Assembly: GCF_003018235.1 (NCBI RefSeq)
Contig: NZ_CP027437.1
Source: Escherichia coli
GTDB lineage: Bacteria; Pseudomonadota; Gammaproteobacteria; Enterobacterales; Enterobacteriaceae
DNA: 64,000 nt
Strand: one strand, 5' to 3'
A program made the position numbers and the translations under genes. The notes under the pieces were generated by a model. The model had not been told where the DNA came from, ran no database searches, and saw only the letters and a program-made list of their open reading frames with translations. Shown piece after piece: positions 8,826 to 23,722 of this stretch (position 1 is its first letter; every line of letters starts with the position of its first letter).

Positions 8826-9118
8826 TATAAATTTCTCATTAAATCTGGATAAATAAATTGACGGCGGCATCGGTAATTTGAGATTCGTTATCATTAAAAA
8901 CGAACACAGAAAAAATAAATATAAATTTGGTGAATGTTTTTGACATGATTAAATCCCTTTACTTTATTTATTTCTGACATAATACGTTACTCCCTTTTAT
9001 TATTAACGATCTGTTTCTCATTTTTCTTTAAACCTGCCTGTAACAGAATGTTAATAAGACATGATTGTTGTGGCAGGATCTGCAATAATTAACAATTATC
9101 CACTTCACAGAGAATGCT

Positions 9119-9790
9119 ATGCAGTACCCGATTAACGAGATGTTCCAGACCCTGCAAGGTGAGGGTTACTTTACCGGCGTCCCCGCTATTTTTATTCGTT
9201 TACAGGGATGCCCGGTCGGCTGTGCCTGGTGCGACACCAAACACACATGGGAAAAGCTTGAGGATCGGGAAGTTTCCCTTTTCAGCATTCTGGGTAAAAC
9301 GAAAGAGAGTGATAAGTGGGGAGCAGCAAGCAGTGAAGACTTACTCGCAGTCATCGGTCGTCAGGGATACACCGCGCGTCACGTGGTGATTACGGGTGGT
9401 GAGCCTTGCATTCATGATTTGCTACCACTGACTGATCTGCTCGAAAAGAACGGTTTTAGCTGCCAGATCGAAACCAGTGGTACTCATGAGGTACGCTGCA
9501 CACCGAATACCTGGGTTACCGTATCACCAAAGCTGAACATGCGCGGCGGCTATGAAGTGTTGTCACAGGCACTGGAGCGAGCCAACGAAATCAAGCATCC
9601 AGTGGGACGCGTACGTGATATTGAAGCACTGGATGAACTTTTGGCGACGCTGACCGATGATAAACCGCGAGTCATTGCACTGCAGCCGATTAGCCAAAAG
9701 GATGATGCCACACGATTGTGCATTGAAACCTGCATTGCGCGTAATTGGCGTTTGTCGATGCAAACACATAAATATCTAAATATTGCCTGA
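9119..9790 (+). CDS. queE: 7-carboxy-7-deazaguanine synthase (radical SAM), queuosine biosynthesis
   Basis: 223-aa ORF with CPVGCAWCDTKH radical-SAM cysteine motif. Confidence 0.93.
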   Translation: MQYPINEMFQTLQGEGYFTGVPAIFIRLQGCPVGCAWCDTKHTWEKLEDREVSLFSILGKTKESDKWGAASSEDLLAVIGRQGYTARHVVITGGEPCIHDLLPLTDLLEKNGFSCQIETSGTHEVRCTPNTWVTVSPKLNMRGGYEVLSQALERANEIKHPVGRVRDIEALDELLATLTDDKPRVIALQPISQKDDATRLCIETCIARNWRLSMQTHKYLNIA

Positions 9791-9999
9791 TTAAACATTT
9801 ATAAGCGTTATAAATGGGTGGAACCTGTAAAGATTTCTACTCATTTATATTGTTTGTCGCCTCTGAAAACTCCTCCATTTTACCCATCCAGGGCTAATCA
9901 TTAGCATTCTCTACAAATTCTGCGGCATTAATTTTTCGCTGGAGTGAAAATTATTGCGGTAAAGTTTGGTAGATTTTAGTCGGTATAGGATTACTTTAA

Positions 10000-10128
10000 A
10001 TATTTAGCTTTTCAATCAATGAATTAAGTGCTCTTTAACATAATGGATGTGTTGTTTGTGTGATACTGTAAAGTTGGTAGATTGTGACTGGCTTAAAAAA
10101 TCATTAATTAATAATAGGTTATGTTTAG
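10000..10128 (+). promoter_or_regulatory. AT-rich CRISPR leader (approximate bounds)
   Basis: AT-rich non-coding stretch abutting the first, leader-proximal repeat; the degenerate repeat is at the opposite end of the array. Confidence 0.5.
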
Positions 10129-10400
10129 AGAGTTCCCCGCGCGAGCGGGGATAAACCGGCCGTCGCCGGATCAGCCTGGCTATGCCAGCAGAGTTCCCCG
10201 CGCCAGCGGGGATAAACCGGACGAACAAAATAAAAACCAACTGAATGATGCGAGTTCCCCGCGCCAGCGGGGATAAACCGCGAACCCTTGAACCGATAAG
10301 GGCGCTGTTTTGGAGTTCCCCGCGCCAGCGGGGATAAACCGGATAGGTGTTACACATATGACCTGGCACTGGCGAGTTTCCCGCGCCAGCGGGGATAACC
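10129..10400 (+). CRISPR. Type I-E-style CRISPR array, 5 repeats and 4 spacers
   Basis: 29-nt repeat gagttccccgcgccagcggggataaaccg at 10129 (variant cgcgag), 10190, 10251, 10312, plus degenerate terminal repeat at 10373-10400; four 32-nt spacers at 10158-10189, 10219-10250, 10280-10311, 10341-10372. Confidence 0.95.
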
Positions 10401-10447
10401 ATTCAGGTATGTTCAGGCCGGGCAGTTTCCCGCCCGGCCTTCCTCAC

Positions 10448-11925
10448 TTACGCATTCGACCAGCTCTGGATCGAATCCGCATTCCCCAATTCCCCATGCA
10501 TCACTTCATACGATTTTTTCAGGATTACATCAGTATGTTTGGTTAACTCCTTGAAAATGCTTTTATTCATCGCGTCGTAGCGTTTGGCACTGTTCTCAAC
10601 AGGCATAAAGATATCTTTCACGCGAACCATTTTGTCGACAGCCGTTGCGTAATCCGGGTATAGCCCCAGACCTACCGCCGTATTAATCGCTGCCCCCAGA
10701 CTTGCACAACCATTAATGGCGTTACGGCGTGCCGGAAGGTTGAACACGTCGGCAAAAATCTGCATAAACAGATCGCTGTTCGAACCGCCGCCAGTAATGA
10801 TCACATGCTTTGCAAAGTGATTCATTTCATTACACATATTGTCGTAATTGTTCTTCAGCGTCAGGCCACGCTTTCCAGTATCGAACGATATATCCATGCG
10901 TAATCCATGCTGGAATCAAAGCCAATCATAATCCCGCGTTTGTACGGTTCCCACGGATTGGTCAGCCAGTCCAGCACCGTCATCAGACCATTACAGCCTG
11001 GCGGCACACAAGACGCTTTTTTGTTGAGCAAATCTTCCGGTGAAAGATCCTGTGCTTTGGCATCCTGAATTAACGACTCGCCTAACATGTCGCGTAGCCA
11101 GCTCACCGTCCACATGCCTTTGCGAATACCGTAACCTTCATACAGCAAGGTTTGCGGAATAGAAGACATAATCGGCCAGTACGCTACCGGATCTTTCGGT
11201 AGTAATTTGCCGTTCATCATCAACGCGATGTAAGTGCCAAGAGAAATTACCGCAGTTTCATCATCCAGTAACCCGGCTCCCAGTGCTTCTACCGGTTTAT
11301 CACTGGTGGTACAAACAACCGGCAGCCCAGCCGGGAAATGTGTCGCCAGCGCGGCTTGAGGAGTGATATGCCCAAGAACAGTGCCCGGCATTTGCACATC
11401 AAACAGCATATGACGGGGGATATTAAACTTCTCCATGACTGCGGCATCTTCACTCCATGCCCAGGTCTTATAATCCACCGGCCACTGACCAAAATAGTTG
11501 GCGATATTGTCTTTAAACTCGCCGGTTAAGCGATGCGTCAGATAACCTGAAAAAGAGGTGACATATGCCACGTCAGGATTCGTATGTTCGTAAGGGCGTG
11601 TAACGCGTGCATCCTGCCAGCTAATCAACGGCGCAGCTGGCGTGCCATCGGCTTTCAATAACGCACGGCAGCAACGGATGGATCCCAGACCAATACCGAC
11701 AATATCTTCTTTATTCCCGGCAAACTGACTCATCAAATCGTGACCGGCAAAACATAATGATGCCCATAAATCGTCGTCAGGATGTTCTGCGGTATCGGCA
11801 TCTGGCGTGTGCATCGGCTGCAATAAGCCTTTGCCTTCGCAAACCACATTACCTTCCAGATCATACATCACCACTTTTGTGCTCTGACTTCCGCCATCAA
11901 TCCCTATGATGTATTTTTTCGACAT
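10448..11925 (-). pseudogene. ygcE: FGGY-family sugar kinase gene split by a frameshift (two ORFs overlapping at 10861-10897)
   Basis: N-terminal ORF 10861-11925 ends ...YRSILESVA*; the other frame continues ...LTLKNNYDNM... to 10448; restoring one C in the minus-strand run gtggcc-ctgacg rejoins them into a 492-codon frame. Confidence 0.7.
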
Positions 11926-11951
11926 GATTTTTCTCCTGTAATTTTCTGGAC

Positions 11952-13229
11952 TTACTTGCTGCTAGCCATAGCAGGGGCGCTATCAGCAGTACGAATTTTT
12001 TGGAACAGCAAAAAGGTAAAGACGATCACCATGGCAAGCGCCGCCATGCCCATCAGCCACATATTGCGGTAGGCTTCTGCAGCGGGCAGGGTGTCTTGCC
12101 AGTAGCCGATAATCGGGTAAACGAAGACATCCGGCAGGAATCCAATCACCGAACAAATACCTACCGTGGTGCCCATAATGTAAGACGGTGTTCTCGCTTC
12201 GCCAGGGCAGGCCCAGTACAGCCCGCGTGAGGCGTAACAGGTGAATCCCAGCAGTAAAATCAGGCCAATCCCCATCGCGACCGATTGCGGGTTAGAGTTC
12301 GTGACGAGCAGGGCAGTTAACGCCAGCAAGCCGAGTACGGAAAGGATTTGGATCACGCGGGTAGGGGATTTCACTTTGCTGTAAGTGGTGATAATGCCGC
12401 CAAGCGGACCGCACAGTGCGCGGAAGATTTTGTTGATCACAATCCCCATGTAGCTCGCCGCCACCAGCGACATACCGTACATTTCGGTCAGATAGTTGGT
12501 GGAGTAACTCAGAATGGCGTAGATGGTGAAGACACCAAAAATCACCATGCTGCAATACCAGGTGGTGCTGATGCGCAAAACGGCCAGGATGTCGCTAAGC
12601 TGGAATGACTGTTTTTCTTCGTTATTGGTATTGCGTAGGTTGTTGTTATCGCTAACAAAAAACCAACACAAAATGCCCAGCAGAATGTAAACCACACTAT
12701 AGATAATAATGACCGTTTTCAGGCTGGCGCTGTCATCCGGTGCAAAGCGAGAAAAGACCCACATGGTAAACACCGCCAGCGACATTACACCGACGCCGCG
12801 CAGCCCTTCCATCCAGCCCATAATTTTCCCTTGCTCGCTATGATCGCCCAGCAACGATGCGGCTTTAATCGACACCGACCACAGCATTAAAATCGTCGTT
12901 ATCGCAAAGGCGACCTGAATACAGAGCATTACCCACAGCGGTGGATATGTTGCCATTAACAGACCCAGTAATCCGGTAATGATCATCGCGGAAGTAATCA
13001 TTTTGCGGTGTGAAAATTTATCGGCAATAACGCCGCTGGGGGCATAAAGAATAATAGCCGCAATACCAAAGGTACTCATTATTAAACCTATCTCGGTATT
13101 GCTGAATCCCATAAATTTCGCCATGGGAATTTGATAAATATAACGTAAATAAGCCAGGTCGAAACTAACGCCGCCGCTAAAACTAATTATCGCGAGGGTT
13201 ATCCAACGGCGATATGAGTTGTGTTGCAT
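11952..13229 (-). CDS. yqcE: MFS-family transporter
   Basis: 425-aa ORF with multiple hydrophobic helices; synteny next to ygcE. Confidence 0.85.
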   Translation of the reverse strand: MQHNSYRRWITLAIISFSGGVSFDLAYLRYIYQIPMAKFMGFSNTEIGLIMSTFGIAAIILYAPSGVIADKFSHRKMITSAMIITGLLGLLMATYPPLWVMLCIQVAFAITTILMLWSVSIKAASLLGDHSEQGKIMGWMEGLRGVGVMSLAVFTMWVFSRFAPDDSASLKTVIIIYSVVYILLGILCWFFVSDNNNLRNTNNEEKQSFQLSDILAVLRISTTWYCSMVIFGVFTIYAILSYSTNYLTEMYGMSLVAASYMGIVINKIFRALCGPLGGIITTYSKVKSPTRVIQILSVLGLLALTALLVTNSNPQSVAMGIGLILLLGFTCYASRGLYWACPGEARTPSYIMGTTVGICSVIGFLPDVFVYPIIGYWQDTLPAAEAYRNMWLMGMAALAMVIVFTFLLFQKIRTADSAPAMASSK

Positions 13230-13407
13230 ATCGTATTCCCATTTGTAATAGACAAAAAAAAGAGAAAAGTAAGCCGCCCTTTCAGGTGGATTACTTTTCT
13301 CAGGTCTCTAGTAATTGCAATAAGAAATAACATGGAAAGTAGTGGTGTTGTGTGAGAGTAATCACGCTTCTGCTTTTTAAAATTATTTGACAATTCGAAT
13401 ATCACAC

Positions 13408-13423
13408 TGTGATTACGATCACA
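13408..13423. promoter_or_regulatory. Candidate CRP binding site in the yqcE/ygcW divergent region
   Basis: tgtgattacgatcaca = TGTGA-N6-TCACA, perfect match to both CRP consensus half-sites. Confidence 0.5.
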
Positions 13424-13440
13424 TTAGCGATTATGCCCTT

Positions 13441-13523
13441 ATGATAAAAATTATCTCCAGTTACCAGAGATAATGAGAAAGGTAACTTCCCTCTCGCGGG
13501 GGAAGTTACCTTTCTTTTTTTTT
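13441..13523 (+). promoter_or_regulatory. Attenuator-like leader upstream of ygcW: hairpin, alternative pairing, intrinsic terminator, possible 10-codon leader ORF
   Basis: Hairpin 1 attatctc/gagataat (13450-13474); terminator stem ggtaacttccc/gggaagttacc (13481-13510) followed by a 13-nt T-rich tract (tttc + 9 T, 13511-13523); agttacc in the hairpin-1 loop is complementary to the terminator 5' arm; ORF MIKIISSYQR at 13441-13473. Confidence 0.45.
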
Positions 13524-13547
13524 GCCTTACGGAAATTGGAGCTAACT

Positions 13548-14333
13548 ATGTCAATCGAATCTCTCAATGCGTTCTCAATGGATTTTTTCTCCCTGAAAGG
13601 TAAAACCGCAATTGTTACCGGCGGGAATAGCGGTTTAGGCCAGGCATTTGCCATGGCGCTGGCCAAAGCAGGCGCAAATATCTTTATTCCAAGCTTCGTT
13701 AAAGATAACGGTGAAACAAAGGAAATGATTGAAAAACAGGGTGTTGAGGTGGACTTCATGCAGGTGGATATCACCGCAGAAGGCGCGCCGCAGAAGATAA
13801 TCGCCGCCTGTTGCGAACGTTTCGGTACCGTCGATATTCTGATTAACAATGCCGGTATTTGTAAGCTGAATAAGGTGCTGGACTTCGGTCGTGCCGACTG
13901 GGACCCGATGATTGATGTGAACCTGACCGCCGCATTCGAGTTAAGCTATGAAGCTGCAAAAATTATGATCCCGCAGAAAAGCGGTAAAATCATTAATATC
14001 TGTTCATTATTCTCTTACTTAGGTGGACAATGGTCACCTGCATATTCTGCCACTAAACATGCTCTTGCCGGGTTCACCAAAGCTTATTGTGATGAACTAG
14101 GTCAATATAATATTCAGGTAAATGGTATTGCTCCGGGATATTACGCTACCGATATCACTCTGGCGACCCGTAGTAATCCAGAAACTAACCAGCGCGTTCT
14201 TGATCATATTCCGGCAAACCGTTGGGGCGATACTCAGGATTTAATGGGCGCAGCCGTATTCCTCGCAAGTCCGGCATCGAATTATGTCAACGGACATTTA
14301 TTAGTGGTTGATGGCGGTTATTTAGTGCGCTAA
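13548..14333 (+). CDS. ygcW: Short-chain dehydrogenase/reductase (SDR) family oxidoreductase
   Basis: Start set at MSIESLNAF... (261 aa) with RBS ggag; TGGNSGLG Rossmann motif. Confidence 0.85.
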   Translation: MSIESLNAFSMDFFSLKGKTAIVTGGNSGLGQAFAMALAKAGANIFIPSFVKDNGETKEMIEKQGVEVDFMQVDITAEGAPQKIIAACCERFGTVDILINNAGICKLNKVLDFGRADWDPMIDVNLTAAFELSYEAAKIMIPQKSGKIINICSLFSYLGGQWSPAYSATKHALAGFTKAYCDELGQYNIQVNGIAPGYYATDITLATRSNPETNQRVLDHIPANRWGDTQDLMGAAVFLASPASNYVNGHLLVVDGGYLVR

Positions 14334-14402
14334 TCCATAACGGTGGTTTCTGTTTTCTCTTATTAATGATTATTCCATTTTTATTATCAGGAAGGAATTA
14401 CT

Positions 14403-15857
14403 ATGTCTTTATCTCGCGCAGCGATTGTCGACCAGCTAAAGGAAATTGTTGGTGCAGATCGCGTAATTACCGATGAAACAGTATTAAAGAAGAACAGTAT
14501 TGACCGTTTTCGCAAATTTCCGGATATTCATGGCATTTATACTTTGCCGATTCCGGCAGCGGTCGTAAAACTCGGTTCCACAGAACAAGTATCCCGTGTG
14601 CTGAATTTTATGAATGCGCACAAAATTAACGGTGTGCCGCGTACCGGTGCTTCCGCTACCGAAGGTGGGCTGGAAACCGTTGTGGAAAACTCGGTGGTGC
14701 TCGACGGCTCTGCCATGAATCAAATCATTAATATTGATATTGAGAATATGCAGGCCACGGCGCAATGCGGAGTTCCGCTGGAAGTGCTGGAAAACGCGTT
14801 GCGTGAAAAAGGTTACACCACGGGGCATTCTCCGCAGTCAAAGCCGCTGGCGCAGATGGGCGGCCTGGTAGCAACCCGCAGTATCGGGCAGTTCTCCACA
14901 CTCTACGGCGCAATCGAAGATATGGTCGTTGGTCTGGAAGCAGTATTGGCTGATGGCACCGTAACACGCATTAAAAACGTACCACGCCGCGCGGCAGGCC
15001 CGGACATTCGTCACATCATCATCGGCAACGAAGGTGCATTGTGCTATATCACTGAAGTAACTGTGAAAATCTTTAAGTTCACCCCGGAAAACAACCTCTT
15101 CTACGGCTATATCCTGGAAGACATGAAAACCGGCTTCAACATCCTGCGTGAAATCATGGTGGAAGGGTATCGTCCGTCGATCGCTCGTTTGTATGACGCT
15201 GAAGATGGCACCCAACACTTCACCCATTTTGCTGACGGAAAATGCGTGCTGATCTTTATGGCTGAAGGTAACCCTCGCATTGCGAAGGCGACGGGCGAAG
15301 GGATTGCTGAAATCGTGGCACGTTACCCGCAATGCCAGCGAGTGGACAGCAAGCTGATCGAAACCTGGTTTAACAACCTGAACTGGGGACCGGATAAAGT
15401 GGCCGCTGAACGTGTGCAGATCCTCAAAACCGGCAACATGGGCTTTACCACCGAAGTGTCCGGCTGCTGGAGCTGCATCCACGAAATCTACGAAAGCGTT
15501 ATTAACCGTATTCGTACCGAGTTCCCGCACGCCGACGACATCACCATGCTGGGCGGTCACTCCTCTCACAGCTACCAGAACGGCACCAACATGTACTTCG
15601 TTTACGACTACAACGTTGTTGACTGTAAGCCGGAAGAGGAAATCGACAAGTACCACAATCCGCTCAACAAAATCATCTGCGAAGAAACCATTCGCCTCGG
15701 CGGTTCGATGGTGCACCACCACGGTATTGGTAAACATCGCGTTCACTGGAGCAAACTGGAACACGGCAGCGCGTGGACGTTGCTGGAAGGTCTGAAAAAA
15801 CAGTTCGATCCTAACGGCATTATGAATACGGGTACTATCTATCCGATTGAAAAATAA
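14403..15857 (+). CDS. ygcU: FAD-linked oxidase (alkyl-DHAP synthase-like)
   Basis: 484-aa ORF; FAD-binding PCMH-type domain. Confidence 0.85.
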   Translation: MSLSRAAIVDQLKEIVGADRVITDETVLKKNSIDRFRKFPDIHGIYTLPIPAAVVKLGSTEQVSRVLNFMNAHKINGVPRTGASATEGGLETVVENSVVLDGSAMNQIINIDIENMQATAQCGVPLEVLENALREKGYTTGHSPQSKPLAQMGGLVATRSIGQFSTLYGAIEDMVVGLEAVLADGTVTRIKNVPRRAAGPDIRHIIIGNEGALCYITEVTVKIFKFTPENNLFYGYILEDMKTGFNILREIMVEGYRPSIARLYDAEDGTQHFTHFADGKCVLIFMAEGNPRIAKATGEGIAEIVARYPQCQRVDSKLIETWFNNLNWGPDKVAAERVQILKTGNMGFTTEVSGCWSCIHEIYESVINRIRTEFPHADDITMLGGHSSHSYQNGTNMYFVYDYNVVDCKPEEEIDKYHNPLNKIICEETIRLGGSMVHHHGIGKHRVHWSKLEHGSAWTLLEGLKKQFDPNGIMNTGTIYPIEK

Positions 15858-15950
15858 TGTGTGAGGCAGCGTTCCGCTATGACGGGGCGTTGCCTTTTCG
15901 GCTTCTCAGGCGAGAAGCCGTTCTTATTACCGGACAATGAAGGGGTAAAG

Positions 15951-17288
15951 ATGAACACTTCACCGGTGCGAATGGATGATTTACCGCTTAACCGTTTTCA
16001 CTGTCGAATTGCTGCGCTCACTTTCGGCGCGCACCTGACCGACGGTTATGTTCTCGGCGTCATTGGTTACGCCATTATTCAGCTTACGCCCGCCATGCAA
16101 CTGACGCCGTTAATGGCGGGAATGATTGGCGGCTCGGCGCTCCTTGGTTTGTTTCTTGGCAGCCTGGTTCTTGGATGGATCTCCGACCATATTGGTCGGC
16201 AAAAAATCTTCACCTTCAGCTTTTTGCTGATTACGCTCGCTTCGTTTTTACAATATTTTGCCACCACGCCAGAGCATCTTATAGGACTACGCATTTTGAT
16301 TGGCATTGGTCTGGGAGGCGATTACTCAGTAGGTCACACTTTGCTGGCTGAATTTTCTCCGCGCCGCCATCGCGGTGTTTTGCTGGGCGCGTTCAGCGTG
16401 GTGTGGACCGTAGGCTATGTGTTAGCAAGTATTGCCGGACATCACTTTATTAGCGAAAGCCCGGAGGCCTGGCGCTGGCTGCTGGCATCGGCAGCTCTGC
16501 CCGCGTTGTTGATTACGTTATTACGCTGGGGAACGCCAGAATCGCCACGCTGGCTACTGCGCCAGGGGCGTTTTGCAGAAGCTCACGCTATCGTGCATCG
16601 CTATTTTGGTCCCCATGTTTTACTGGGCGATGAAGTGGCAACGGCGACCCATAAACACATCAAAACCTTGTTCTCTTCGCGCTACTGGCGGCGCACAGCG
16701 TTTAACAGCGTCTTCTTTGTCTGCCTCGTAATCCCATGGTTTGTGATTTATACCTGGCTGCCAACTATCGCCCAGACTATTGGACTGGAAGATGCGCTGA
16801 CTGCCAGCCTGATGCTTAATGCGTTGTTAATTGTGGGCGCGCTGTTGGGATTAGTTCTGACGCACCTGCTGGCACATCGCAAATTTTTGCTGGGAAGTTT
16901 TTTGCTGCTGGCGGCAACGCTGGTCGTGATGGCCTGTTTGCCTTCCGGCAGTTCATTAACGCTGCTGCTTTTTGTTCTCTTCAGCACCACCATTTCGGCA
17001 GTCAGTAATCTGGTGGGCATTTTGCCTGCGGAAAGTTTTCCTACTGACATTCGCTCGCTGGGCGTCGGTTTTGCCACCGCCATGAGTCGACTTGGCGCGG
17101 CGGTAAGTACTGGCCTGCTGCCGTGGGTGCTGGCGCAGTGGGGAATGCAAGTCACCTTATTGCTCCTGGCGGCAGTGTTGTTGGTTGGTTTTGTTGTGAC
17201 CTGGCTATGGGCACCAGAAACCAAAGCACTCCCGCTGGTGGCGGCGGGAAATGTAGGAGGTGCGAATGAACATTCTGTTAGCGTTTAA
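15951..17288 (+). CDS. ygcS: MFS-family transporter
   Basis: ORF 15861-17288; start set at MNTSPVRMDDLPLNRF (445 aa); 12-TM-like hydrophobic profile. Confidence 0.8.
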   Translation: MNTSPVRMDDLPLNRFHCRIAALTFGAHLTDGYVLGVIGYAIIQLTPAMQLTPLMAGMIGGSALLGLFLGSLVLGWISDHIGRQKIFTFSFLLITLASFLQYFATTPEHLIGLRILIGIGLGGDYSVGHTLLAEFSPRRHRGVLLGAFSVVWTVGYVLASIAGHHFISESPEAWRWLLASAALPALLITLLRWGTPESPRWLLRQGRFAEAHAIVHRYFGPHVLLGDEVATATHKHIKTLFSSRYWRRTAFNSVFFVCLVIPWFVIYTWLPTIAQTIGLEDALTASLMLNALLIVGALLGLVLTHLLAHRKFLLGSFLLLAATLVVMACLPSGSSLTLLLFVLFSTTISAVSNLVGILPAESFPTDIRSLGVGFATAMSRLGAAVSTGLLPWVLAQWGMQVTLLLLAAVLLVGFVVTWLWAPETKALPLVAAGNVGGANEHSVSV

Positions 17289-18045
17289 AGCCGAACCGGA
17301 TGCCGGAATGCTGGCGGAAAAAGAGTGGCAGGCGGCGGCTCAGGGTAATAGCGGACCGGATGTTTCGCTACTGCGAAGTTTACTCGGTGCTGATGAACAG
17401 GCTGCCGCCGCGCTGCTGTTGGCGCAGAGAAAAAACGGTACGTCGATGTCTTTAACCGCGTTGAGCATGGGGGATGAACGGGCGTTGCACTGGCTGCGCT
17501 ATCTCATGGCTCTTGGGTTTGAGGAAGCTGTATTGCTGGAGACGGCGGCAGATCTGCGCTTTGCGCCGGAATTTGTCGCTCGCCATATTGCCGAATGGCA
17601 GCGTCAGAATCCGCTGGATCTGATAATTACCGGCTGCCAAAGCAGCGAAGGGCAGAATGGGCAAACGCCATTTTTGCTGGCGGAAATGCTGGGCTGGCCC
17701 TGCTTCACCCAGGTGGAGCGTTTCACTCTCGACGCGCCGTTTATCACCCTCGAACAGCGTACTGAACATGGGCTGCGCTGTTGCCGGGTTCGCTTGCCTG
17801 CGGTGATTGCCGTGCGTCAGTGCGGTGAAGTGGCCTTGCCAGTACCGGGAATGCGTCAGCGAATGGCGGCGGGGAAAGCAGAAATTATCCGTAAAACTGT
17901 TGCTGCCGAATCGCCAGCGATGCTGTGTCTGCAACTGGCAAGAGCAGAGCAACGACGCGGAGCGACGCTGATTGATGGGCAAACGGTAGCAGAAAAAGCG
18001 CAAAAGCTATGGCAGGACTATTTACGCCAAAGGATGCAGCCATGA
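17266..18045 (+). CDS. ygcR: Electron-transfer flavoprotein beta-subunit-like protein (FixA-like)
   Basis: ORF 17260-18045; start set at MNILLAFK; ETF-beta family; overlaps ygcQ start. Confidence 0.8.
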   Translation: MNILLAFKAEPDAGMLAEKEWQAAAQGNSGPDVSLLRSLLGADEQAAAALLLAQRKNGTSMSLTALSMGDERALHWLRYLMALGFEEAVLLETAADLRFAPEFVARHIAEWQRQNPLDLIITGCQSSEGQNGQTPFLLAEMLGWPCFTQVERFTLDAPFITLEQRTEHGLRCCRVRLPAVIAVRQCGEVALPVPGMRQRMAAGKAEIIRKTVAAESPAMLCLQLARAEQRRGATLIDGQTVAEKAQKLWQDYLRQRMQP

Positions 18046-18902
18046 ATATCGCAATTGTGACAATAAATCAGGAGAATGCCGCAATAGTGAGCTGGCTGGC
18101 AGAACAGGATTTCAGCGGTTGTACCCTGGCACACTGGCAGATTGAACCTCAGCCCGCTGTGGCGGAACAGGTACTGGATGCGCTGGTGGAACAGTGGCAG
18201 CGAACGCCTGCGGACGTTGTTATCTTTCCGCCGGGAACGTTTGGCGATGAACTGTCGACCCGGCTGGCCTGGCGTTTACATGGTGCAAGCATCTGCCAGG
18301 TGACTTCGTTAGATATTCCAACCGTAAGCGTGCGCAAATCCCACTGGGGAAATGCGCTAACGGCGACGCTGCAAACAGAAAAACGCCCGCTATGCCTTTC
18401 GCTGGCACGTCAGGCGGGAGCAGATAAAAACGCCACGTTGCCCTCTGGTATGCAGCAACTGAACATTGTCCCAGGTGCGCTTCCCGACTGGCTGGTTAGC
18501 ATAGAAAACCTGAAAAATGTTACCCGCGACCCATTAGCTGAAGCCAGACGGGTGCTGGTGGTGGGGCAGGGCGGAGAGGCAGATAACCAGGAAATCGCTA
18601 TGCTGGTAGAAAAGCTGGGAGCCGAAGTGGGCTACAGTCGGGCGCGAGTGATGAACGGTGGCGTTGATGCCGAAAAAGTGATTGGTATTTCCGGACATTT
18701 GCTGGCACCTGAGGTGTGTATTGTTGTTGGCGCTTCCGGCGCAGCAGCGTTAATGGCGGGCGTACGCAATAGCAAGTTTGTGGTGGCGATTAATCATGAC
18801 GCCAGTGCAGCGGTATTTTCACAGGCAGATGTTGGCGTGGTTGATGACTGGAAAGTGGTGCTGGAGGCACTGGTGACAAACATTCACGCAGATTGCCAAT
18901 AA
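18042..18902 (+). CDS. ygcQ: Electron-transfer flavoprotein alpha-subunit-like protein (FixB-like)
   Basis: ORF 18009-18902; start set at MNIAIVTINQ; ETF-alpha C-terminal FAD-binding region. Confidence 0.8.
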   Translation: MNIAIVTINQENAAIVSWLAEQDFSGCTLAHWQIEPQPAVAEQVLDALVEQWQRTPADVVIFPPGTFGDELSTRLAWRLHGASICQVTSLDIPTVSVRKSHWGNALTATLQTEKRPLCLSLARQAGADKNATLPSGMQQLNIVPGALPDWLVSIENLKNVTRDPLAEARRVLVVGQGGEADNQEIAMLVEKLGAEVGYSRARVMNGGVDAEKVIGISGHLLAPEVCIVVGASGAAALMAGVRNSKFVVAINHDASAAVFSQADVGVVDDWKVVLEALVTNIHADCQ

Positions 18903-18904
18903 CG

Positions 18905-19015
18905 TGCAGCCGGATGATCCTGCCTACGGTTCTGGGCTGGGGACTTGTAAGCCTGATAAGACGCGTCAAGCGTCGCATCAGGCGCTGAATGTCGGATGTG
19001 GCGTGCAGCCTACAA
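18905..19015. repeat. REP/BIME-type palindromic repeats between convergent ygcQ and ygcP
   Basis: gcctgataagacgcgtcaagcgtcgcatcaggc and cggatgtggcgtgcagcctac-type REP units. Confidence 0.7.
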
Positions 19016-19049
19016 ATCACACCAAATTCAACTTGTTACGATTATCCCG

Positions 19050-19625
19050 TCAAAGCAATTTTTTCGCTAACGTCCAGACCCCGGTATTCGTGGTGGAAAG
19101 CGCCACGACACCTGCGTTAATCGCATTACGCGCATCTTCTTCATCGCACACCAGCCCGCCAGCAATCAGCGGTTGGCGGATTTTCTCCGTTACCCAGCCC
19201 AGCACTTTGGGCATACAGCCAGGCAGGATCTCAATACAATCCGGATTCGATTGCGCAACTTGCTTATCAATGTTGTGAAACGAAATCGAATCAACAATAA
19301 ACAGGCGATGAATACAGAAAAAACCTTCCGCTCTTGCCGCTTTCAGCATTGAGGCTTTGGTACTGATAATGCCGTCCGCCTCGGTCACCAGTTTCAGAAA
19401 CTGAATCACCACTTCTTTGTTCGATGCGCCTTCCAGCAAATCAACATGAATAAAGGCATATTTTCCGGCGTGTTTAATCTTTTTCACGATTTGACTAATG
19501 GTGCAGATATTGCCGTACAACACGGAAATAAACTGGCATTCAGAATCGATTGCCAGTTGCAGGCTGGCATTATCTTTAACGGCAGCAATCACCGGATTCT
19601 GGCGGAGCAGGTGTAAGAGGGGCAT
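19050..19625 (-). CDS. ygcP: GlpP-like antiterminator-family regulatory protein
   Basis: 191-aa ORF; G3P-antiterminator (GlpP) family similarity. Confidence 0.8.
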   Translation of the reverse strand: MPLLHLLRQNPVIAAVKDNASLQLAIDSECQFISVLYGNICTISQIVKKIKHAGKYAFIHVDLLEGASNKEVVIQFLKLVTEADGIISTKASMLKAARAEGFFCIHRLFIVDSISFHNIDKQVAQSNPDCIEILPGCMPKVLGWVTEKIRQPLIAGGLVCDEEDARNAINAGVVALSTTNTGVWTLAKKLL

Positions 19626-19641
19626 AAATTATCCTTATTAT

Positions 19642-19902
19642 TTATCCAAAGCGGTAGGTGATGCCGAATCCGGAAGGCGGATAGCGCCACTGTTGTAGTG
19701 TTGATTCGTCACACAGCAAACGGCAGGTGCCACACTCCAGGCAGCCGCGATAATCAACGCGTAAGTCACCTTCCGGTGTGAGCGAAAAAAGACCTGCCGG
19801 ACAGGCGTTAATCAACCGTTGTACCATCTGACGCTCAACGGAGTCAGCCGGAACAATGTGCGGCGCATCGGCAACGCGCCAGAGATTACGGGCTACAGAC
19901 AT
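19642..19902 (-). CDS. ygcO: Ferredoxin-like protein (FixX-like)
   Basis: ORF 19642-19938; start set at MSVARNLW (86 aa); CxxC...C cysteine pattern. Confidence 0.75.
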   Translation of the reverse strand: MSVARNLWRVADAPHIVPADSVERQMVQRLINACPAGLFSLTPEGDLRVDYRGCLECGTCRLLCDESTLQQWRYPPSGFGITYRFG

Positions 19903-21164
19903 CGCAGACTCCTGATAACATCGCCCGCCAGATGCCACAGGCCGTGACGACGTAAATGACGCCAGAATAACTGGCGCAGCGATGGAACAGGTTTATCACC
20001 CTGATCCCATAAATCGCGGGAAATATCCTGCATTAACGCAGGCCACGCACGGTACCATCCAGGGCGTTGCAAAAGCGCCGGAACATGCTGATAACGTTGT
20101 AGAACATCCCATAGCAGGCTGCGCTCGACGTTGTGATGATAAAGCGGAAACAGATTTTGCGGCTCGCGGTGCTGGCAGGCGCTTATCAGCGTTTGTGCCG
20201 CCGCCTGTGCGCCAGCCAGCGCCATATCCATACCGCGCACGGAAATTCCGGTATTGACGCAACTGCGCAACGCATCGCCCACCAGCAGCCAGCCGTTACC
20301 GGCGTATTGCACTGGCATACTGTGCAAGCCACCTTCTGGCACCAGATGCGCACCATACTCCAGTGATTCCGTGTTTTTGATAAGCGGGCGCACTGCCGGA
20401 TGCGTTTTAAAGCGAGCCAGCAGCTCGCTTGCCGGAACACGACTTTGCGTAAGGGAAGAGAGCGGGCAAACAATCCCTAACGAGAGCGTTTGTTGATTAG
20501 TATAAAGAAATGCGCCGCCGGGTAAGTCATCACAGATCCTGCCGCTGAACAGCAACGCTGCGCCTTCGTTATTCTCCAGATGAAAACGTTCTTCAATAGC
20601 GGATGTTTCCAGCGACAGCACTTCTTTGATCCCCAACGCCATCGCTTCGCCAGCAGGACGAGTCACTAACCCGTGACGTTCAGCCAGGACGCTGTTGGCA
20701 CCTTCTGCCAGCACCACATAACGGGCGCGGAGAATATCGTCACCACAAATGACACCACACACCCTGCCGTTTTCTTCATACAGCGCATCCACCGTCGCAC
20801 CAGGGATGCATTCGACACCTTCTTTTTCGGCTTCGGCAACCAGCCACGGATCGAACCGTGCACGTAATACACTCCAGGATTCACCGCCGGGCTGTAAGCT
20901 GGAAAACGTCGTTGCGCCATCCGGCGTTAGCAGAGAAAGGCTTTCGTGAGTGATGCGTCGTTCAAGAGGCGCGGTCAGATGAAATTGCGGGAGGAGTTCC
21001 GCGAGTGCATGGGTATATAACCGCCCGCCGGAAAGATTTTTGCTGCCGGGGATTTCAGCGCGTTCCAGTAACAAAACGGATAAACCCGCTCGCGCGCAGT
21101 GTAACGCGCAAGCGGTGCCTGCAATACCGGCACCAATAATAATAATGTCGCAGTCGTCTTCCAT
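19893..21164 (-). CDS. ygcN: FAD-dependent oxidoreductase (FixC/ETF-QO-like)
   Basis: ORF 19893-21194; start set at MEDDCDIIIIGAGIAGTACAL (FAD-binding GxGxxG). Confidence 0.8.
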   Translation of the reverse strand: MEDDCDIIIIGAGIAGTACALHCARAGLSVLLLERAEIPGSKNLSGGRLYTHALAELLPQFHLTAPLERRITHESLSLLTPDGATTFSSLQPGGESWSVLRARFDPWLVAEAEKEGVECIPGATVDALYEENGRVCGVICGDDILRARYVVLAEGANSVLAERHGLVTRPAGEAMALGIKEVLSLETSAIEERFHLENNEGAALLFSGRICDDLPGGAFLYTNQQTLSLGIVCPLSSLTQSRVPASELLARFKTHPAVRPLIKNTESLEYGAHLVPEGGLHSMPVQYAGNGWLLVGDALRSCVNTGISVRGMDMALAGAQAAAQTLISACQHREPQNLFPLYHHNVERSLLWDVLQRYQHVPALLQRPGWYRAWPALMQDISRDLWDQGDKPVPSLRQLFWRHLRRHGLWHLAGDVIRSLRCL

Positions 21165-21241
21165 GTCATGCCCCGGATATCCAGAACACAACACCCTAAC
21201 ATAGCGTTACTTAAGGGAAATTGACCGCCGACATACTCTTA

Positions 21242-21607
21242 TCATTCGCCGCGATAGATGCAACCTGCGGTGCAGGTTTCTTTCACCATAACCGCACTTA
21301 ACAGCGGAACAACCGGTTTAACCTGATCCCAAATCCATTTTGCTAAAACTTCGCTGGTTGGGTTTTCCAGACCTGGAATATCATTGAGATAATGGTGATC
21401 GAGGCGCTCATAAGTTGGCTTAAACGCCGCTTTCAGTTCAGCGAAATCGATAATCCAGCCCGTATGCGGATCGACTTCCCCGGTAATTTCCAGTCGCACC
21501 ATAAAGGAATGCCCGTGCAGGCGACCACATTTATGCCCTTCCGGGACGTGTGGTAAGCGGTGAGCGGCTTCGAAGGTGAAATCTTTAAATAACGTGGTGG
21601 ACATCAT
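21242..21607 (-). CDS. queD: 6-carboxy-5,6,7,8-tetrahydropterin synthase (queuosine biosynthesis)
   Basis: ORF 21242-21691; start set at [18 protein letters not shown] (121 aa); PTPS family CxxxHGH motif. Confidence 0.9.
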
Positions 21608-21922
21608 AATTTCTCTACAGGACGATAAAACCGCCGTAGAGTACCGGAAAGGCTGTTTTTTCGCATTATCTAAAACGACTTTGTTGCGCAAAATCGCTGA
21701 TTTATCTTAATGATTGGCTAAATTCATTTGTTTTTCATTGGGTTGGTTAATCTGTTTTGTTGTTAAAGACTATTGCTAAAACAGGTTAGTCGATTTGGTT
21801 ATTAGTTATCGCTATCCCGTCTTTAATCCACACCGTTCACCCCGTTAACCTTACCTTCTCTTCTGTTTTATGGGCGCTGACAGGGCGCAGAAACAGCTTT
21901 GCTTACTGGAACATAACGACGC

Positions 21923-23722
21923 ATGACGACACAGGTCCCACCTTCCGCGTTGCTTCCGTTGAACCCGGAGCAACTGGCACGCCTTCAGGCGGCCACGACC
22001 GATTTAACTCCCACCCAGCTTGCCTGGGTTTCTGGCTATTTCTGGGGCGTGCTCAACCAGCAGCCTGCTGCGCTTGCAGCGACGCCAGCGCCCGCCGCAG
22101 AAATGCCGGGTATAACTATTATCTCCGCTTCGCAAACCGGCAATGCGCGCCGGGTTGCTGAAGCATTACGCGATGATTTATTAGCGGCAAAACTGAACGT
22201 TAAGCTGGTGAACGCGGGCGACTATAAATTCAAACAAATCGCCAGCGAAAAACTGCTTATCGTGGTGACGTCAACGCAAGGGGAAGGGGAACCGCCGGAA
22301 GAAGCCGTCGCGCTGCATAAGTTCCTGTTCTCCAAAAAAGCGCCAAAGCTGGAAAACACCGCGTTTGCCGTGTTTAGCCTCGGCGATAGTTCTTATGAAT
22401 TTTTCTGCCAGTCCGGGAAAGATTTTGACAGTAAGCTGGCGGAACTGGGCGGTGAACGCCTGCTCGACCGTGTCGATGCCGACGTTGAATACCAGGCTGC
22501 TGCCAGCGAGTGGCGCGCCCGCGTGGTTGATGCGCTTAAATCGCGTGCGCCTGTCGCGGCACCTTCGCAATCCGTCGCTACTGGCGCGGTAAATGAAATC
22601 CACACCAGCCCGTACAGCAAAGACGCGCCGCTGGTGGCGAGCCTCTCTGTTAACCAGAAAATTACCGGGCGTAACTCTGAAAAAGACGTTCGCCATATCG
22701 AAATTGACTTAGGTGACTCTGGCCTGCGTTACCAGCCGGGTGACGCGCTGGGCGTCTGGTATCAGAACGATCCGGCACTGGTGAAAGAACTTGTCGAACT
22801 GCTGTGGCTGAAAGGCGATGAAACTGTCACCGTTGACGGCAAAACCCTGCCGCTGAACGAAGCGCTACAGTGGCACTTCGAACTGACCGTCAACACCGCC
22901 AACATTGTTGAGAACTATGCCACGCTTACCCGCAGCGAAACGCTGCTGCCGCTGGTGGGCGATAAAGCGAAGTTACAGCATTACGCCGCGACCACGCCGA
23001 TTGTCGACATGGTGCGTTTCTCTCCGGCGCAACTGGATGCCGAAGCGCTGATTAATCTGCTGCGCCCGCTGACCCCGCGCCTGTATTCCATCGCCTCCTC
23101 GCAGGCGGAAGTCGAGAACGAAGTACACGTCACCGTTGGTGTGGTGCGTTACGACGTGGAAGGCCGCGCCCGTGCCGGTGGTGCCTCCAGCTTCCTCGCG
23201 GACCGCGTGGAAGAAGAGGGCGAAGTCCGCGTATTTATCGAACATAACGACAACTTCCGCCTGCCAGCCAACCCAGAAACCCCGGTGATTATGATTGGCC
23301 CAGGCACCGGCATCGCGCCGTTCCGAGCCTTTATGCAGCAGCGCGCCGCTGACGAAGCGCCGGGTAAAAACTGGCTGTTCTTTGGCAATCCGCACTTTAC
23401 GGAAGATTTCCTCTACCAGGTGGAATGGCAGCGCTACGTCAAAGAGGGCGTGCTGACGCGTATCGATCTTGCCTGGTCGCGCGATCAAAAAGAAAAAATT
23501 TACGTACAAGACAAACTGCGCGAACAGGGCGCGGAGCTGTGGCGCTGGATCAATGACGGTGCCCACATTTATGTCTGCGGCGACGCTAATCGCATGGCGA
23601 AAGACGTTGAGCAGGCACTTCTGGAAGTGATTGCCGAATTTGGTGGCATGGACACCGAAGCGGCGGATGAATTTTTAAGTGAGCTGCGCGTAGAGCGCCG
23701 TTATCAGCGAGATGTCTACTAA
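21923..23722 (+). CDS. cysJ: Sulfite reductase [NADPH] flavoprotein alpha subunit
   Basis: 599-aa ORF with flavodoxin and FAD/NADPH-binding domains; stop overlaps cysI start. Confidence 0.97.

Follow-up and report, generated by a model that had tools for sequence, protein, structure and literature searches.

The antiterminator GlpP of Bacillus subtilis, once loaded with glycerol-3-phosphate (G3P), binds an antiterminator hairpin with a purine-rich loop in the leader RNA of glpD and so allows read-through of the leader terminator. We know of no GlpP-type antitermination described in Escherichia coli. Here we report on the ygc/yqc genes of E. coli, analysed in a stretch of 64,000 nucleotides of contig NZ_CP027437.1 (assembly GCF_003018235.1), hereafter called the window. 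Two divergent operons of this cluster, yqcE-ygcE and ygcWUSRQ, are each preceded by a leader element that appears to be an attenuator of the GlpP type, its antiterminator probably being YgcP, a GlpP-family protein encoded in the separate ygcNOP operon. Our reading, which we hold to be somewhat more probable than its negation, is that the ygc/yqc genes are a single inducible regulon for the catabolism of a small polyol-like compound, with leaders controlled by YgcP and a pathway composed of YgcW, YgcE and YgcU.

The 5' untranslated region (5'UTR) of B. subtilis glpD contains GGTC, then CTGAGATGAGGAGA, then GACC, and runs into a terminator (PMC9604022 supplement). Compared by eye only, its layout and purine-rich loop are like those of the ygc leaders, the consensus of which (~67 nt) reads xAGTTACY, AGAGA, N3-5, GAGAAARGTAACTTCC, loop, GGAAG..GCTTTTCTC and T6-9. 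On this comparison, an upstream segment in either leader can pair with the 5' arm of the terminator around a loop of the form NGAGA...GAGA.

Both E. coli leaders lie in the 318 bp between the divergent operons (13230-13547), together with two CRP-like sites. In the ygcW leader attenuator (13457..13523, plus strand), the antiterminator helix is formed by 13460-13465 and 13481-13486, with the loop AGAGATAATGAGAAA between them, and a terminator scan identified a stem of 17-19 bp (13475-13516) followed by a T9 tract, placed between the promoter-like site and the ygcW start codon. The yqcE leader attenuator (13254..13318, minus strand) is likewise located ahead of yqcE; its antiterminator pairs approximately 13310-13315 with 13290-13295, and its terminator stem, at approximately 13262-13301, is followed by T8 at 13254-13261. 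A role of these terminators in ending neighbouring genes was considered and rejected because the flanking genes diverge: yqcE runs opposite to ygcW, and the terminator of the ygcW leader can therefore not end another gene. A CRP consensus site kept across Enterobacterales, TGTGATTACGATCACA (13408..13423), precedes the ygcW leader by about 40 bp, and a -10-like TATGAT is found at 13440-13445 on the ygcW promoter side. Similarly, the yqcE leader is preceded at a distance of about 40 bp by a CRP-like site read from the sequence, TGTGAGAGTAATCACG (13351..13366), which is kept in Enterobacterales. A Crp site in the yqcE/ygcW region had been predicted earlier by PhyloScan (PMC1794230), and the yqcE-ygcE operon has been reported to be Crp-activated (PMC8085971).

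The leader element was found in 5,063 of the 5,426 complete E. coli genomes, mostly with at least 99% identity. It carries no feature in the RefSeq annotation, and a scan of positions 9000-23000 with Rfam 15 (E up to 1) gave nothing at the leaders, the only matches being one to naRNA4 and two attributed to chance. When 68 related loci were compared, a strong terminator was present at the same position upstream of the gene for the short-chain dehydrogenase (SDR) in every Enterobacterales locus, and also in Photobacterium, Sporomusa, Geosporobacter, Dethiosulfatibacter and Bacillota metagenome-assembled genomes (MAGs).

The two helices of the leader were evaluated on an alignment (A2) of 63 leader sequences from several phyla. 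The seed sequences had been chosen by a pattern that required no complementarity at the covarying positions, so that their selection does not explain the covariation. In the antiterminator, AGTTACY pairs with RGTAACT to form a helix of 6-7 bp that shares bases with the 5' arm of the terminator. This helix is 93.9% paired overall, and within its 6-bp core five pairs are unpaired in none of the 63 sequences and the sixth in three of them. Compensatory changes occur at three pairs, one of which is G-C in 41 sequences and A-U in 22, another U-A in 50 and C-G in 9; none of 500 shuffles matched the observed covariation, and slid controls paired at no more than 56%. In the terminator, 9 pairs show changes on both sides, none of 500 shuffles matched the observed values on any of five measures, and the helix was recovered independently by RNAalifold. 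As antiterminator and terminator share positions, they are mutually exclusive. The fold energy of the terminator is -35.2 kcal/mol (z -6.9) for ygcW and -22.3 kcal/mol (z -4.0) for yqcE, whereas the antiterminator helices alone reach only -6.7 and -1.4 kcal/mol. The terminators are thus far stronger, which makes termination the default state and calls for a factor that stabilises the alternative.

A covariance model of the element (R1) was searched over 1.54 Mb, comprising the window and 83 related loci. The window contains exactly two strong matches, the yqcE leader (75.3 bits, E 2e-12) and the ygcW leader (74.3 bits, E 3e-12). In the related loci about 114 strong matches were found, spread over 63 loci, and the motif-preceded operons span Proteobacteria, Bacillota and Actinomycetes. 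The gene downstream of the match was the SDR gene or yqcE in about 102 of the 114 cases, the remainder being BCCT transporter genes (5), ygcU (4), an Opu operon, an MttB operon and an unassigned ORF (1 each). All 55 loci with a GlpP-like gene contain the motif. The motif is present in 8 loci for which no GlpP-like gene was called, several of them short or truncated contigs, and neither was called in 20 loci, which include those of Desulfobacula and several short contigs.

The candidate regulator is encoded by ygcP (19050..19625, minus strand) and belongs to the G3P_antiterm family (PF04309, E 1.9e-62; 210 bits against a cut-off of 27). It aligns over its full length (residues 11-184) with the Listeria GlpP structure 3KTS (E 8e-28), including the C-terminal GGL...STTN segments. 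By analogy with GlpP, YgcP is proposed to act as antiterminator for both leaders, and its binding to the leader RNA as well as the dependence of this binding on a ligand are inferred from that analogy. The first-pass annotation, made from the same stretch, had listed a GlpP-like regulator; its family membership holds, but it is not incidental, as the protein fits two conserved leader attenuators that were absent from that annotation.

Two Saccharopolyspora loci carry the motif at 43-47 bits (L078, 9073-9137; L080, 7728-7790), and ORF clustering called no GlpP-like gene in them; the regulator may have been missed in high-GC ORF calling or may be located elsewhere. In two loci of Bacillota MAGs (L074, 13969-14030, minus strand, and L071), the motif lies ahead of an operon with genes for an MttB-family methyltransferase, a PanB-like hydroxymethyltransferase, a transporter of the OpuC type and a member of the proline-racemase family. 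The presence of an MttB operon under the motif links the regulon to quaternary-amine demethylation.

The genes that accompany the motif were identified by clustering the ORFs of the 83 loci and counting the loci that hold each gene. YgcU was found in 81 loci, the SDR in 76 and the FGGY kinase in 74, followed by the beta and alpha subunits of an electron-transferring flavoprotein (ETF; 62 and 61), the GlpP-like protein (55), yqcE (47), ygcS (43), the FixC-like protein (35) and the FixX-like protein (26), the genes for the last two and ygcS being confined to Enterobacterales. Compared with orthologues from other phyla, the E. coli proteins are 63-80% (YgcW), 65-73% (YgcU), 45-59% (YgcE) and 39-61% (YgcP) identical, and YgcR and YgcQ only 27-41%, their Klebsiella counterparts being 74% and 59% identical, respectively. 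The figures for YgcU were obtained with Desulfobacterales, Sporomusa, Clostridia, halophilic Bacilli, Photobacterium, SAR324 and Actinomycetes. In Bacillota the genes are arranged in the order P-W-E-U(-R-Q). The conserved core thus consists of the SDR YgcW, the FGGY kinase YgcE and YgcU, and the ETF and FixCX proteins are a variable periphery.

Of the core enzymes, YgcW (13548..14333, plus strand) is a KduD-like SDR with a score slightly below the KduD cut-off of NCBIfam. YgcE (10448..11925, minus strand) has XylB and LsrK as its nearest relatives and scores 98 bits on GlpK, the cut-off of which is 590. The E. coli kinase is 59% identical to those of Sporomusa and Geosporobacter versus 48-49% to those of Serratia and Rahnella, a pattern that hints at gene replacement or horizontal transfer inside the cluster.

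YgcU (14403..15857, plus strand) is a flavoenzyme of the VAO/PCMH fold, with the FAD_binding_4 domain (PF01565, E 4.7e-36) and the FAD-oxidase_C domain (PF02913, E 3.5e-19). Its best solved relatives are alkyl-dihydroxyacetone-phosphate synthases (ADPS; E 5e-40), and glycolate oxidase and LctD rank behind them. The ADPS residues R419, Y578 and H615-617, the identity of which is confirmed by the mutant entries R419H and Y578F in the Protein Data Bank (PDB), align with R262, Y398 and H438-440 of YgcU. These residues are invariant in the YgcU family (alignment A1) and absent from OX2, a second, paralogous oxidase often carried by the loci of anaerobes, which has the EHG motif of D-lactate dehydrogenases instead and is sometimes accompanied by its own LctBC-like ETF. 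The 28 top Foldseek matches of a YgcU model are all ADPS. With 484 amino acids, YgcU is without the N-terminal region of ADPS, the alignments beginning at ADPS residue 138 (Dictyostelium) or 215 (mammal). The protein is still termed 'an FAD-binding oxidoreductase' in a 2026 paper (PMC13012123), and its earlier designation as a generic FAD-linked oxidase gives way here to that of an enzyme carrying the catalytic residues of alkyl-DHAP synthase (DHAP, dihydroxyacetone phosphate).

The transporter genes vary with the host. In Enterobacterales they are of the MFS type: yqcE (11952..13229, minus strand), first gene of the divergent yqcE-ygcE operon, encodes a member of the anion:cation symporter-like group, and ygcS (15951..17288, plus strand) a transporter of the Sugar_tr type. 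Outside Enterobacterales, BCCT transporters (14 loci) or OpuC-type ABC transporters are found, and MttB-family and pterin-binding methyltransferases are sometimes part of the same motif-controlled set. None of the neighbouring BCCT, Opu and MttB proteins reached an NCBIfam equivalog, and they scored far below the betaine, choline and carnitine cut-offs. When more of the neighbouring genes in Halobacillus, Virgibacillus, Dethiosulfatibacter, Pantoea and other hosts were annotated with Pfam, no extra conserved pathway enzyme came to light; the genes found there (moeAB, gsi, asparaginase, methyltransferases) are unrelated flanking genes.

The ETF genes lie directly 3' of ygcU in 61-62 of the 83 loci. 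In E. coli, ygcR (17266..18045, plus strand) overlaps ygcS and ygcQ and encodes a divergent beta subunit, and ygcQ (18042..18902, plus strand) a divergent alpha subunit with a retained FAD domain. A loss of FAD-binding residues, which the first-pass annotation had named as an argument against its proposal, was not observed: YgcQ keeps the key ET-FAD residues (human numbering), namely R249 as SR, T266 as Ser in IGISG, GxSG as GASGA and AIN-D as AINHD. In YgcR the nucleotide loop G-x-Q-S-x-x-G...Q-T is kept, and in E. coli FKAEPD and GADEQ stand in place of the N-terminal VKxVPD and NPxDE. The ETF subunits score only 45-74 bits against cut-offs of 240-600; the FixB model gives 61 vs 549 and the ETF beta models 42-45 vs 350-445. 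Between E. coli and Klebsiella, YgcQ is 59% identical whereas YgcW and YgcU are 94-97% identical, which suggests that the ETF is under relaxed or shifting constraint. The remaining two proteins of the electron-transfer branch are encoded on the minus strand: ygcN (19893..21164) specifies a FixC-like FAD oxidoreductase with the ubiquinone-binding domain of ETF:quinone oxidoreductase (ETF-QO; 365-382 bits on FixC models, cut-off 610), and ygcO (19642..19902) a FixX-like ferredoxin with the motif CPAG...CLECGTCRLLC (84 bits on FixX, cut-off 166). The route from a dehydrogenase through an ETF to quinone, proposed earlier as the essence of the system, is thus borne out in its parts, as YgcU is an FAD enzyme, the ETF genes adjoin its gene, YgcN has the ubiquinone domain and YgcO the FixX-type cysteine motif; as a description of the whole system it is weakened, since the ETF and FixCX proteins are the least conserved part, some loci are without ETF and YgcNO occurs in Enterobacterales only.

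From these observations the following mechanism is proposed. Two divergent promoters of the CRP type each transcribe a leader of about 67 nt, in which the terminator fold is the default OFF state and pairing of the upstream AGTTACY with the 5' arm of the terminator the ON state, the latter helix being too weak to prevail unaided. YgcP, made from the separate ygcNOP operon and loaded with a phosphorylated intermediate of the pathway, would bind the antiterminator hairpin at its purine-rich loop (AGAGA...GAGAAA) and allow read-through, by analogy with GlpP. Import of the substrate would rely on the MFS transporters in Enterobacterales and, in other hosts, on BCCT or OpuC-type transporters. YgcW would then oxidise a secondary alcohol and YgcE phosphorylate a primary alcohol, giving a DHAP-like ketol phosphate with a substituent at C1. 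This ketol phosphate, or its reduced form, would be the inducer and at the same time serve as substrate for YgcU, which may apply covalent flavin chemistry of the ADPS type at C1 and oxidise or release the substituent to yield a triose phosphate. In the case of a net oxidation, electrons would leave via the ETF YgcRQ and, in Enterobacterales, pass on through YgcN and YgcO to quinone; the placement of ygcU beside the ETF genes suggests such a net electron transfer, which ADPS does not perform. The association with BCCT, OpuC and MttB suggests that in many organisms the substituent bears a quaternary ammonium or similar group.

Several observations weigh against this reading. ADPS carries out no net redox reaction, so that a dedicated ETF is not obviously needed by an ADPS-like enzyme, and no ETF is found within 10 kb of the module in Halobacillus, Thalassobacillus, Virgibacillus, Alkalihalobacillus and one Pantoea. 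The equivalent of human alpha-H286 is replaced in YgcQ (by Leu in E. coli), and no YgcU-linked ETF alpha that was examined has the histidine at this place in the alignment; in the clade of Escherichia, Klebsiella and Mixta (L008 and L021 versus L033, L038 and L043), YgcQ has also lost about 35 residues of domain I; the ETF branch may be decaying or doing something else. The order of the YgcW and YgcE steps is guessed. The AlphaFold2 model of YgcU, built on an alignment of 14 sequences, is poor (pLDDT 66, active-site loops below 50) and serves as a fold check only. The R1 search of the window gave no motif ahead of ygcN, that is of the ygcNOP operon, or anywhere else apart from the two leaders. 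Finally, ygcE is disrupted in the window, and if its frameshift (described below) is real, the pathway may be inactive in this strain.

Other explanations account for part of the data. The leaders might be metabolite-binding riboswitches or ordinary terminators unrelated to YgcP, the role of which would then lie elsewhere, as the position of ygcP outside the leader-controlled operons would allow. However, the consistent co-occurrence of the motif with the GlpP-like gene, together with the 20 loci that have neither, argues against this; upstream of the terminator, conservation is limited to one hairpin of ~30 nt, too small for known aptamers, the layout is that of the GlpP-dependent glpD leader, and between diverging genes there is no upstream transcript to end. 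We therefore find this explanation very unlikely. The same leader layout, and the membership of YgcP in the GlpP family, would also suit a second GlpP-controlled route for glycerol or G3P, with YgcE as glycerol kinase, YgcP as G3P sensor and YgcU with the ETF as an anaerobic G3P dehydrogenase. YgcE is indeed an FGGY kinase with similarity to glycerol kinase, ADPS binds DHAP derivatives and the G3P/DHAP couple has a potential near that of lactate/pyruvate, which is handled by ETF-linked dehydrogenases. The low GlpK score of YgcE and its greater closeness to XylB and LsrK speak against this route, which also leaves the conserved SDR unexplained and has BCCT, OpuC or MFS transporters where a carrier of the GlpF or GlpT type would be expected; moreover, E. 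coli already possesses glpK, glpD and glpABC under GlpR. It is accordingly judged very unlikely.

The other two alternatives concern the direction and nature of the YgcU reaction. YgcU might be an ordinary D-lactate, glycolate or D-2-hydroxy-acid dehydrogenase that passes electrons to the ETF YgcRQ and from there to YgcNO, in which case the transporters, the SDR and the GlpP-like protein would be loose accessories. It shares its fold with GlcD, LctD and D-lactate dehydrogenase (D-LDH), the ETF genes lie 3' of ygcU, dehydrogenase-ETF complexes of the LctBCD type are established (7QH2 is among the matches) and YgcN and YgcO are FixC- and FixX-like. Yet YgcU is devoid of the Glu-His motif of these dehydrogenases and has the Arg, Tyr and His-His-His of ADPS; in anaerobes a true hydroxy-acid-type enzyme, OX2, sometimes with its own LctBC-like ETF, adjoins YgcU; the supposed accessories kinase and SDR are better conserved than the ETF, and the kinase/transporter operons are under the same leader RNA as the SDR/YgcU operon. 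Such a dehydrogenase is thus unlikely. Electrons might also flow in reverse, YgcNO and YgcRQ bringing them from quinol or NADH to YgcU for the reductive cleavage of a C-N, C-S or C-O bond beside a carbonyl, for example with release of trimethylamine or an alcohol from an onium-substituted ketol phosphate, on the model of the role proposed for E. coli FixABCX in carnitine reduction. The BCCT and OpuC transporters outside Enterobacterales, the MttB-family methyltransferases found in the same regulon in some Bacillota and the many hosts that are strict anaerobes are all compatible with this, as are the two paralogous FixABCX-like sets of E. coli, which are tied to reductive or anaerobic metabolism. 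Against it stand the aerobic halophilic Bacilli, which hold the module without an ETF, the ADPS family, which offers no precedent for a reductase, and the enzymes of the ETF-QO type, which normally reduce quinone; we consider reverse flow distinctly unlikely.

Within the reading of an inducible polyol-type regulon, a bolder and rather improbable version is that the core of SDR, FGGY kinase and ADPS-like enzyme is a previously unknown pathway in which the opening steps of ether-lipid biosynthesis proceed backwards, with cleavage of a non-hydrolysable C1 bond of a substituted glycerol. Candidate substrates would be the ether-linked head groups of betaine lipids after deacylation (glyceryl-trimethylhomoserine and relatives) or related glyceryl ethers, thioethers and onium compounds, from which a triose phosphate and the released moiety would result; GlpP-family RNA-binding proteins with a new class of ligand would sense the pathway. 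The Enterobacterales version, with MFS transporters and an ETF leading to quinone, might act on a gut-relevant analogue. Glycerophosphocholine was considered as a substrate and judged unlikely, since simple phosphodiesterases already handle it.

As to the cluster as a whole, the ORF list and scans with Pfam and NCBIfam place the ygc genes between 13548 and 21164, which are the start codons of ygcW and ygcN, and the RefSeq gene names at the locus are the same ygc names. The gene identities and coordinates listed by the first-pass annotation agree with these data, and its limits are right for ygcW to ygcN; it left outside the yqcE-ygcE operon with the conserved kinase YgcE. The functional unit reaches left to include this operon (10448-13229) and the regulatory region. 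The claim that the system is conserved is confirmed by a search of the complete E. coli genomes, in which a 9-kb stretch of the cluster was matched in 5,425 of 5,426, the match covering 80% or more of the stretch in 5,086. The best identity is only 98.6%, so that the window may derive from a lineage missing from this collection, Shigella-like or otherwise unsampled. That its function had been called uncharacterised also agrees with our searches: a full-text literature search on all gene names found no functional study of the ygc/yqc genes, searches for ADPS with ETF, FGGY and antiterminator, for BCCT with FGGY and for betaine-lipid catabolism led to no functional assignment, and none of the 10 cluster proteins reached an NCBIfam equivalog cut-off. 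What is added here are the two unannotated GlpP-type leader attenuators, the cross-phylum regulon that they define and the ADPS-like nature of YgcU.

Some features of the window concern individual parts of the cluster. In ygcE, a 1-bp deletion at about 10864/10865 (GTGGC-CTGACG here, compared with GTGGCGCTGACG in E. coli BEC1) splits the gene into ORFs 10861-11925 and 10448-10897. It was absent from all 5,364 complete E. coli genomes checked and represents a pseudogene private to this genome or else an error of sequencing. A GC-rich hairpin of 9 bp followed by a weak T tract is found in the gap between ygcU and ygcS (15899..15920, plus strand; -15.6 kcal/mol, z -2.7) and may be an internal attenuator that lowers the output of the transporter and ETF genes beyond it, or a processing site. 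Between the convergent ygcQ and ygcP, positions 18950-19033 match the Rfam family naRNA4 below threshold (37.7 bits against a gathering score of 59.5). This family is derived from repetitive extragenic palindromic (REP) sequences, and the match is probably a REP element. The start of ygcN lies 77 nt past the stop of queD on the same strand, an arrangement common to 23 Enterobacterales loci, and the terminator scan of the gap (21165-21241) found no terminator-like site; transcripts of queD may therefore extend in part into ygcNOP and its regulator gene.

About nine y-genes of E. coli, present in ~94% of complete genomes, are recast by these results as one regulon with a defined switch, and the leaders together with a GlpP-family protein would be the first antitermination system of the GlpP type known from E. 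coli. As a biosensor, the leaders can be used directly, which offers a direct route to the substrate of the cluster. In marine, soda-lake and gut anaerobes the module is tied to osmolyte-type transporters and MttB methyltransferases, and the cross-phylum pattern points to an unrecognised degradation route for an abundant, possibly onium-bearing, glycerol-like compound. If YgcU does apply covalent flavin chemistry of the ADPS type in catabolism, this would be new enzymology, and we see a realistic chance of it in a system that is best described as GlpP antitermination controlling a polyol-type catabolic operon.

Each of the known systems resembles the ygc cluster in some of its parts. All four protein types of the FixABCX/EtfABCX systems, which include E. 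coli fixABCX and ydiQRST, are also present in ygc. At the equivalog level, however, the earlier label of FixABCX-type has to be dropped, as all scores of the ETF and CX proteins are below the curated cut-offs, the four genes are in two convergent operons and the CX pair is present in only 35 and 26 of the 83 loci, all Enterobacterales, compared with 61-62 for the ETF genes; the two pairs are thus not co-inherited as in FixABCX. In the LctBCD-type complexes of anaerobes, the gene of a VAO-fold flavoenzyme is followed by the ETF beta and alpha genes in the same way as ygcU is followed by ygcRQ, and acetogens and sulfate reducers are among the hosts. YgcU differs by having HHHG in place of the Glu-His (EHGxG) motif of hydroxy-acid dehydrogenases of the LctD type, and YgcQ has no N-terminal ferredoxin (Fer4) domain as found in this type; this domain is present in the second ETF of two loci (L004 and L063), and a separate LctD/LctBC-like set, OX2 plus second ETF, adjoins the ygc-type genes in several loci.

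The closest sequence and fold match of YgcU is ADPS/AGPS (EC 2.5.1.26), with which it shares the catalytic Arg, Tyr and His-His-His, whereas its gene lies among kinase, SDR, transporter and ETF genes in a catabolic context that depends on CRP and not, as for ADPS, in one of ether-lipid biosynthesis. In this context it resembles the operons for polyols such as erythritol, threitol, ribitol and xylitol, which similarly combine a KduD/GolD-like SDR, an FGGY kinase and a transporter under catabolite control; the ygc core differs from them in having no isomerase, aldolase or epimerase but an ADPS-like flavoenzyme, and in being controlled by RNA antitermination instead of a repressor of the DeoR or SorC type. 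With the GlpP system of B. subtilis (glpD, glpFK, glpTQ), the ygc system has in common the regulator family PF04309, a promoter-proximal intrinsic terminator in the leader and a kinase within the regulon that would make a phosphorylated inducer. The helix sequences differ (GTTAC/GTAAC in ygc, GGTC/GACC in glpD), the genes controlled are not glp genes, and the ligand is probably not G3P. Unlike B. subtilis GlpP, the ygc system is found in Gammaproteobacteria, and its E. coli regulator is encoded together with the ETF:quinone oxidoreductase genes.

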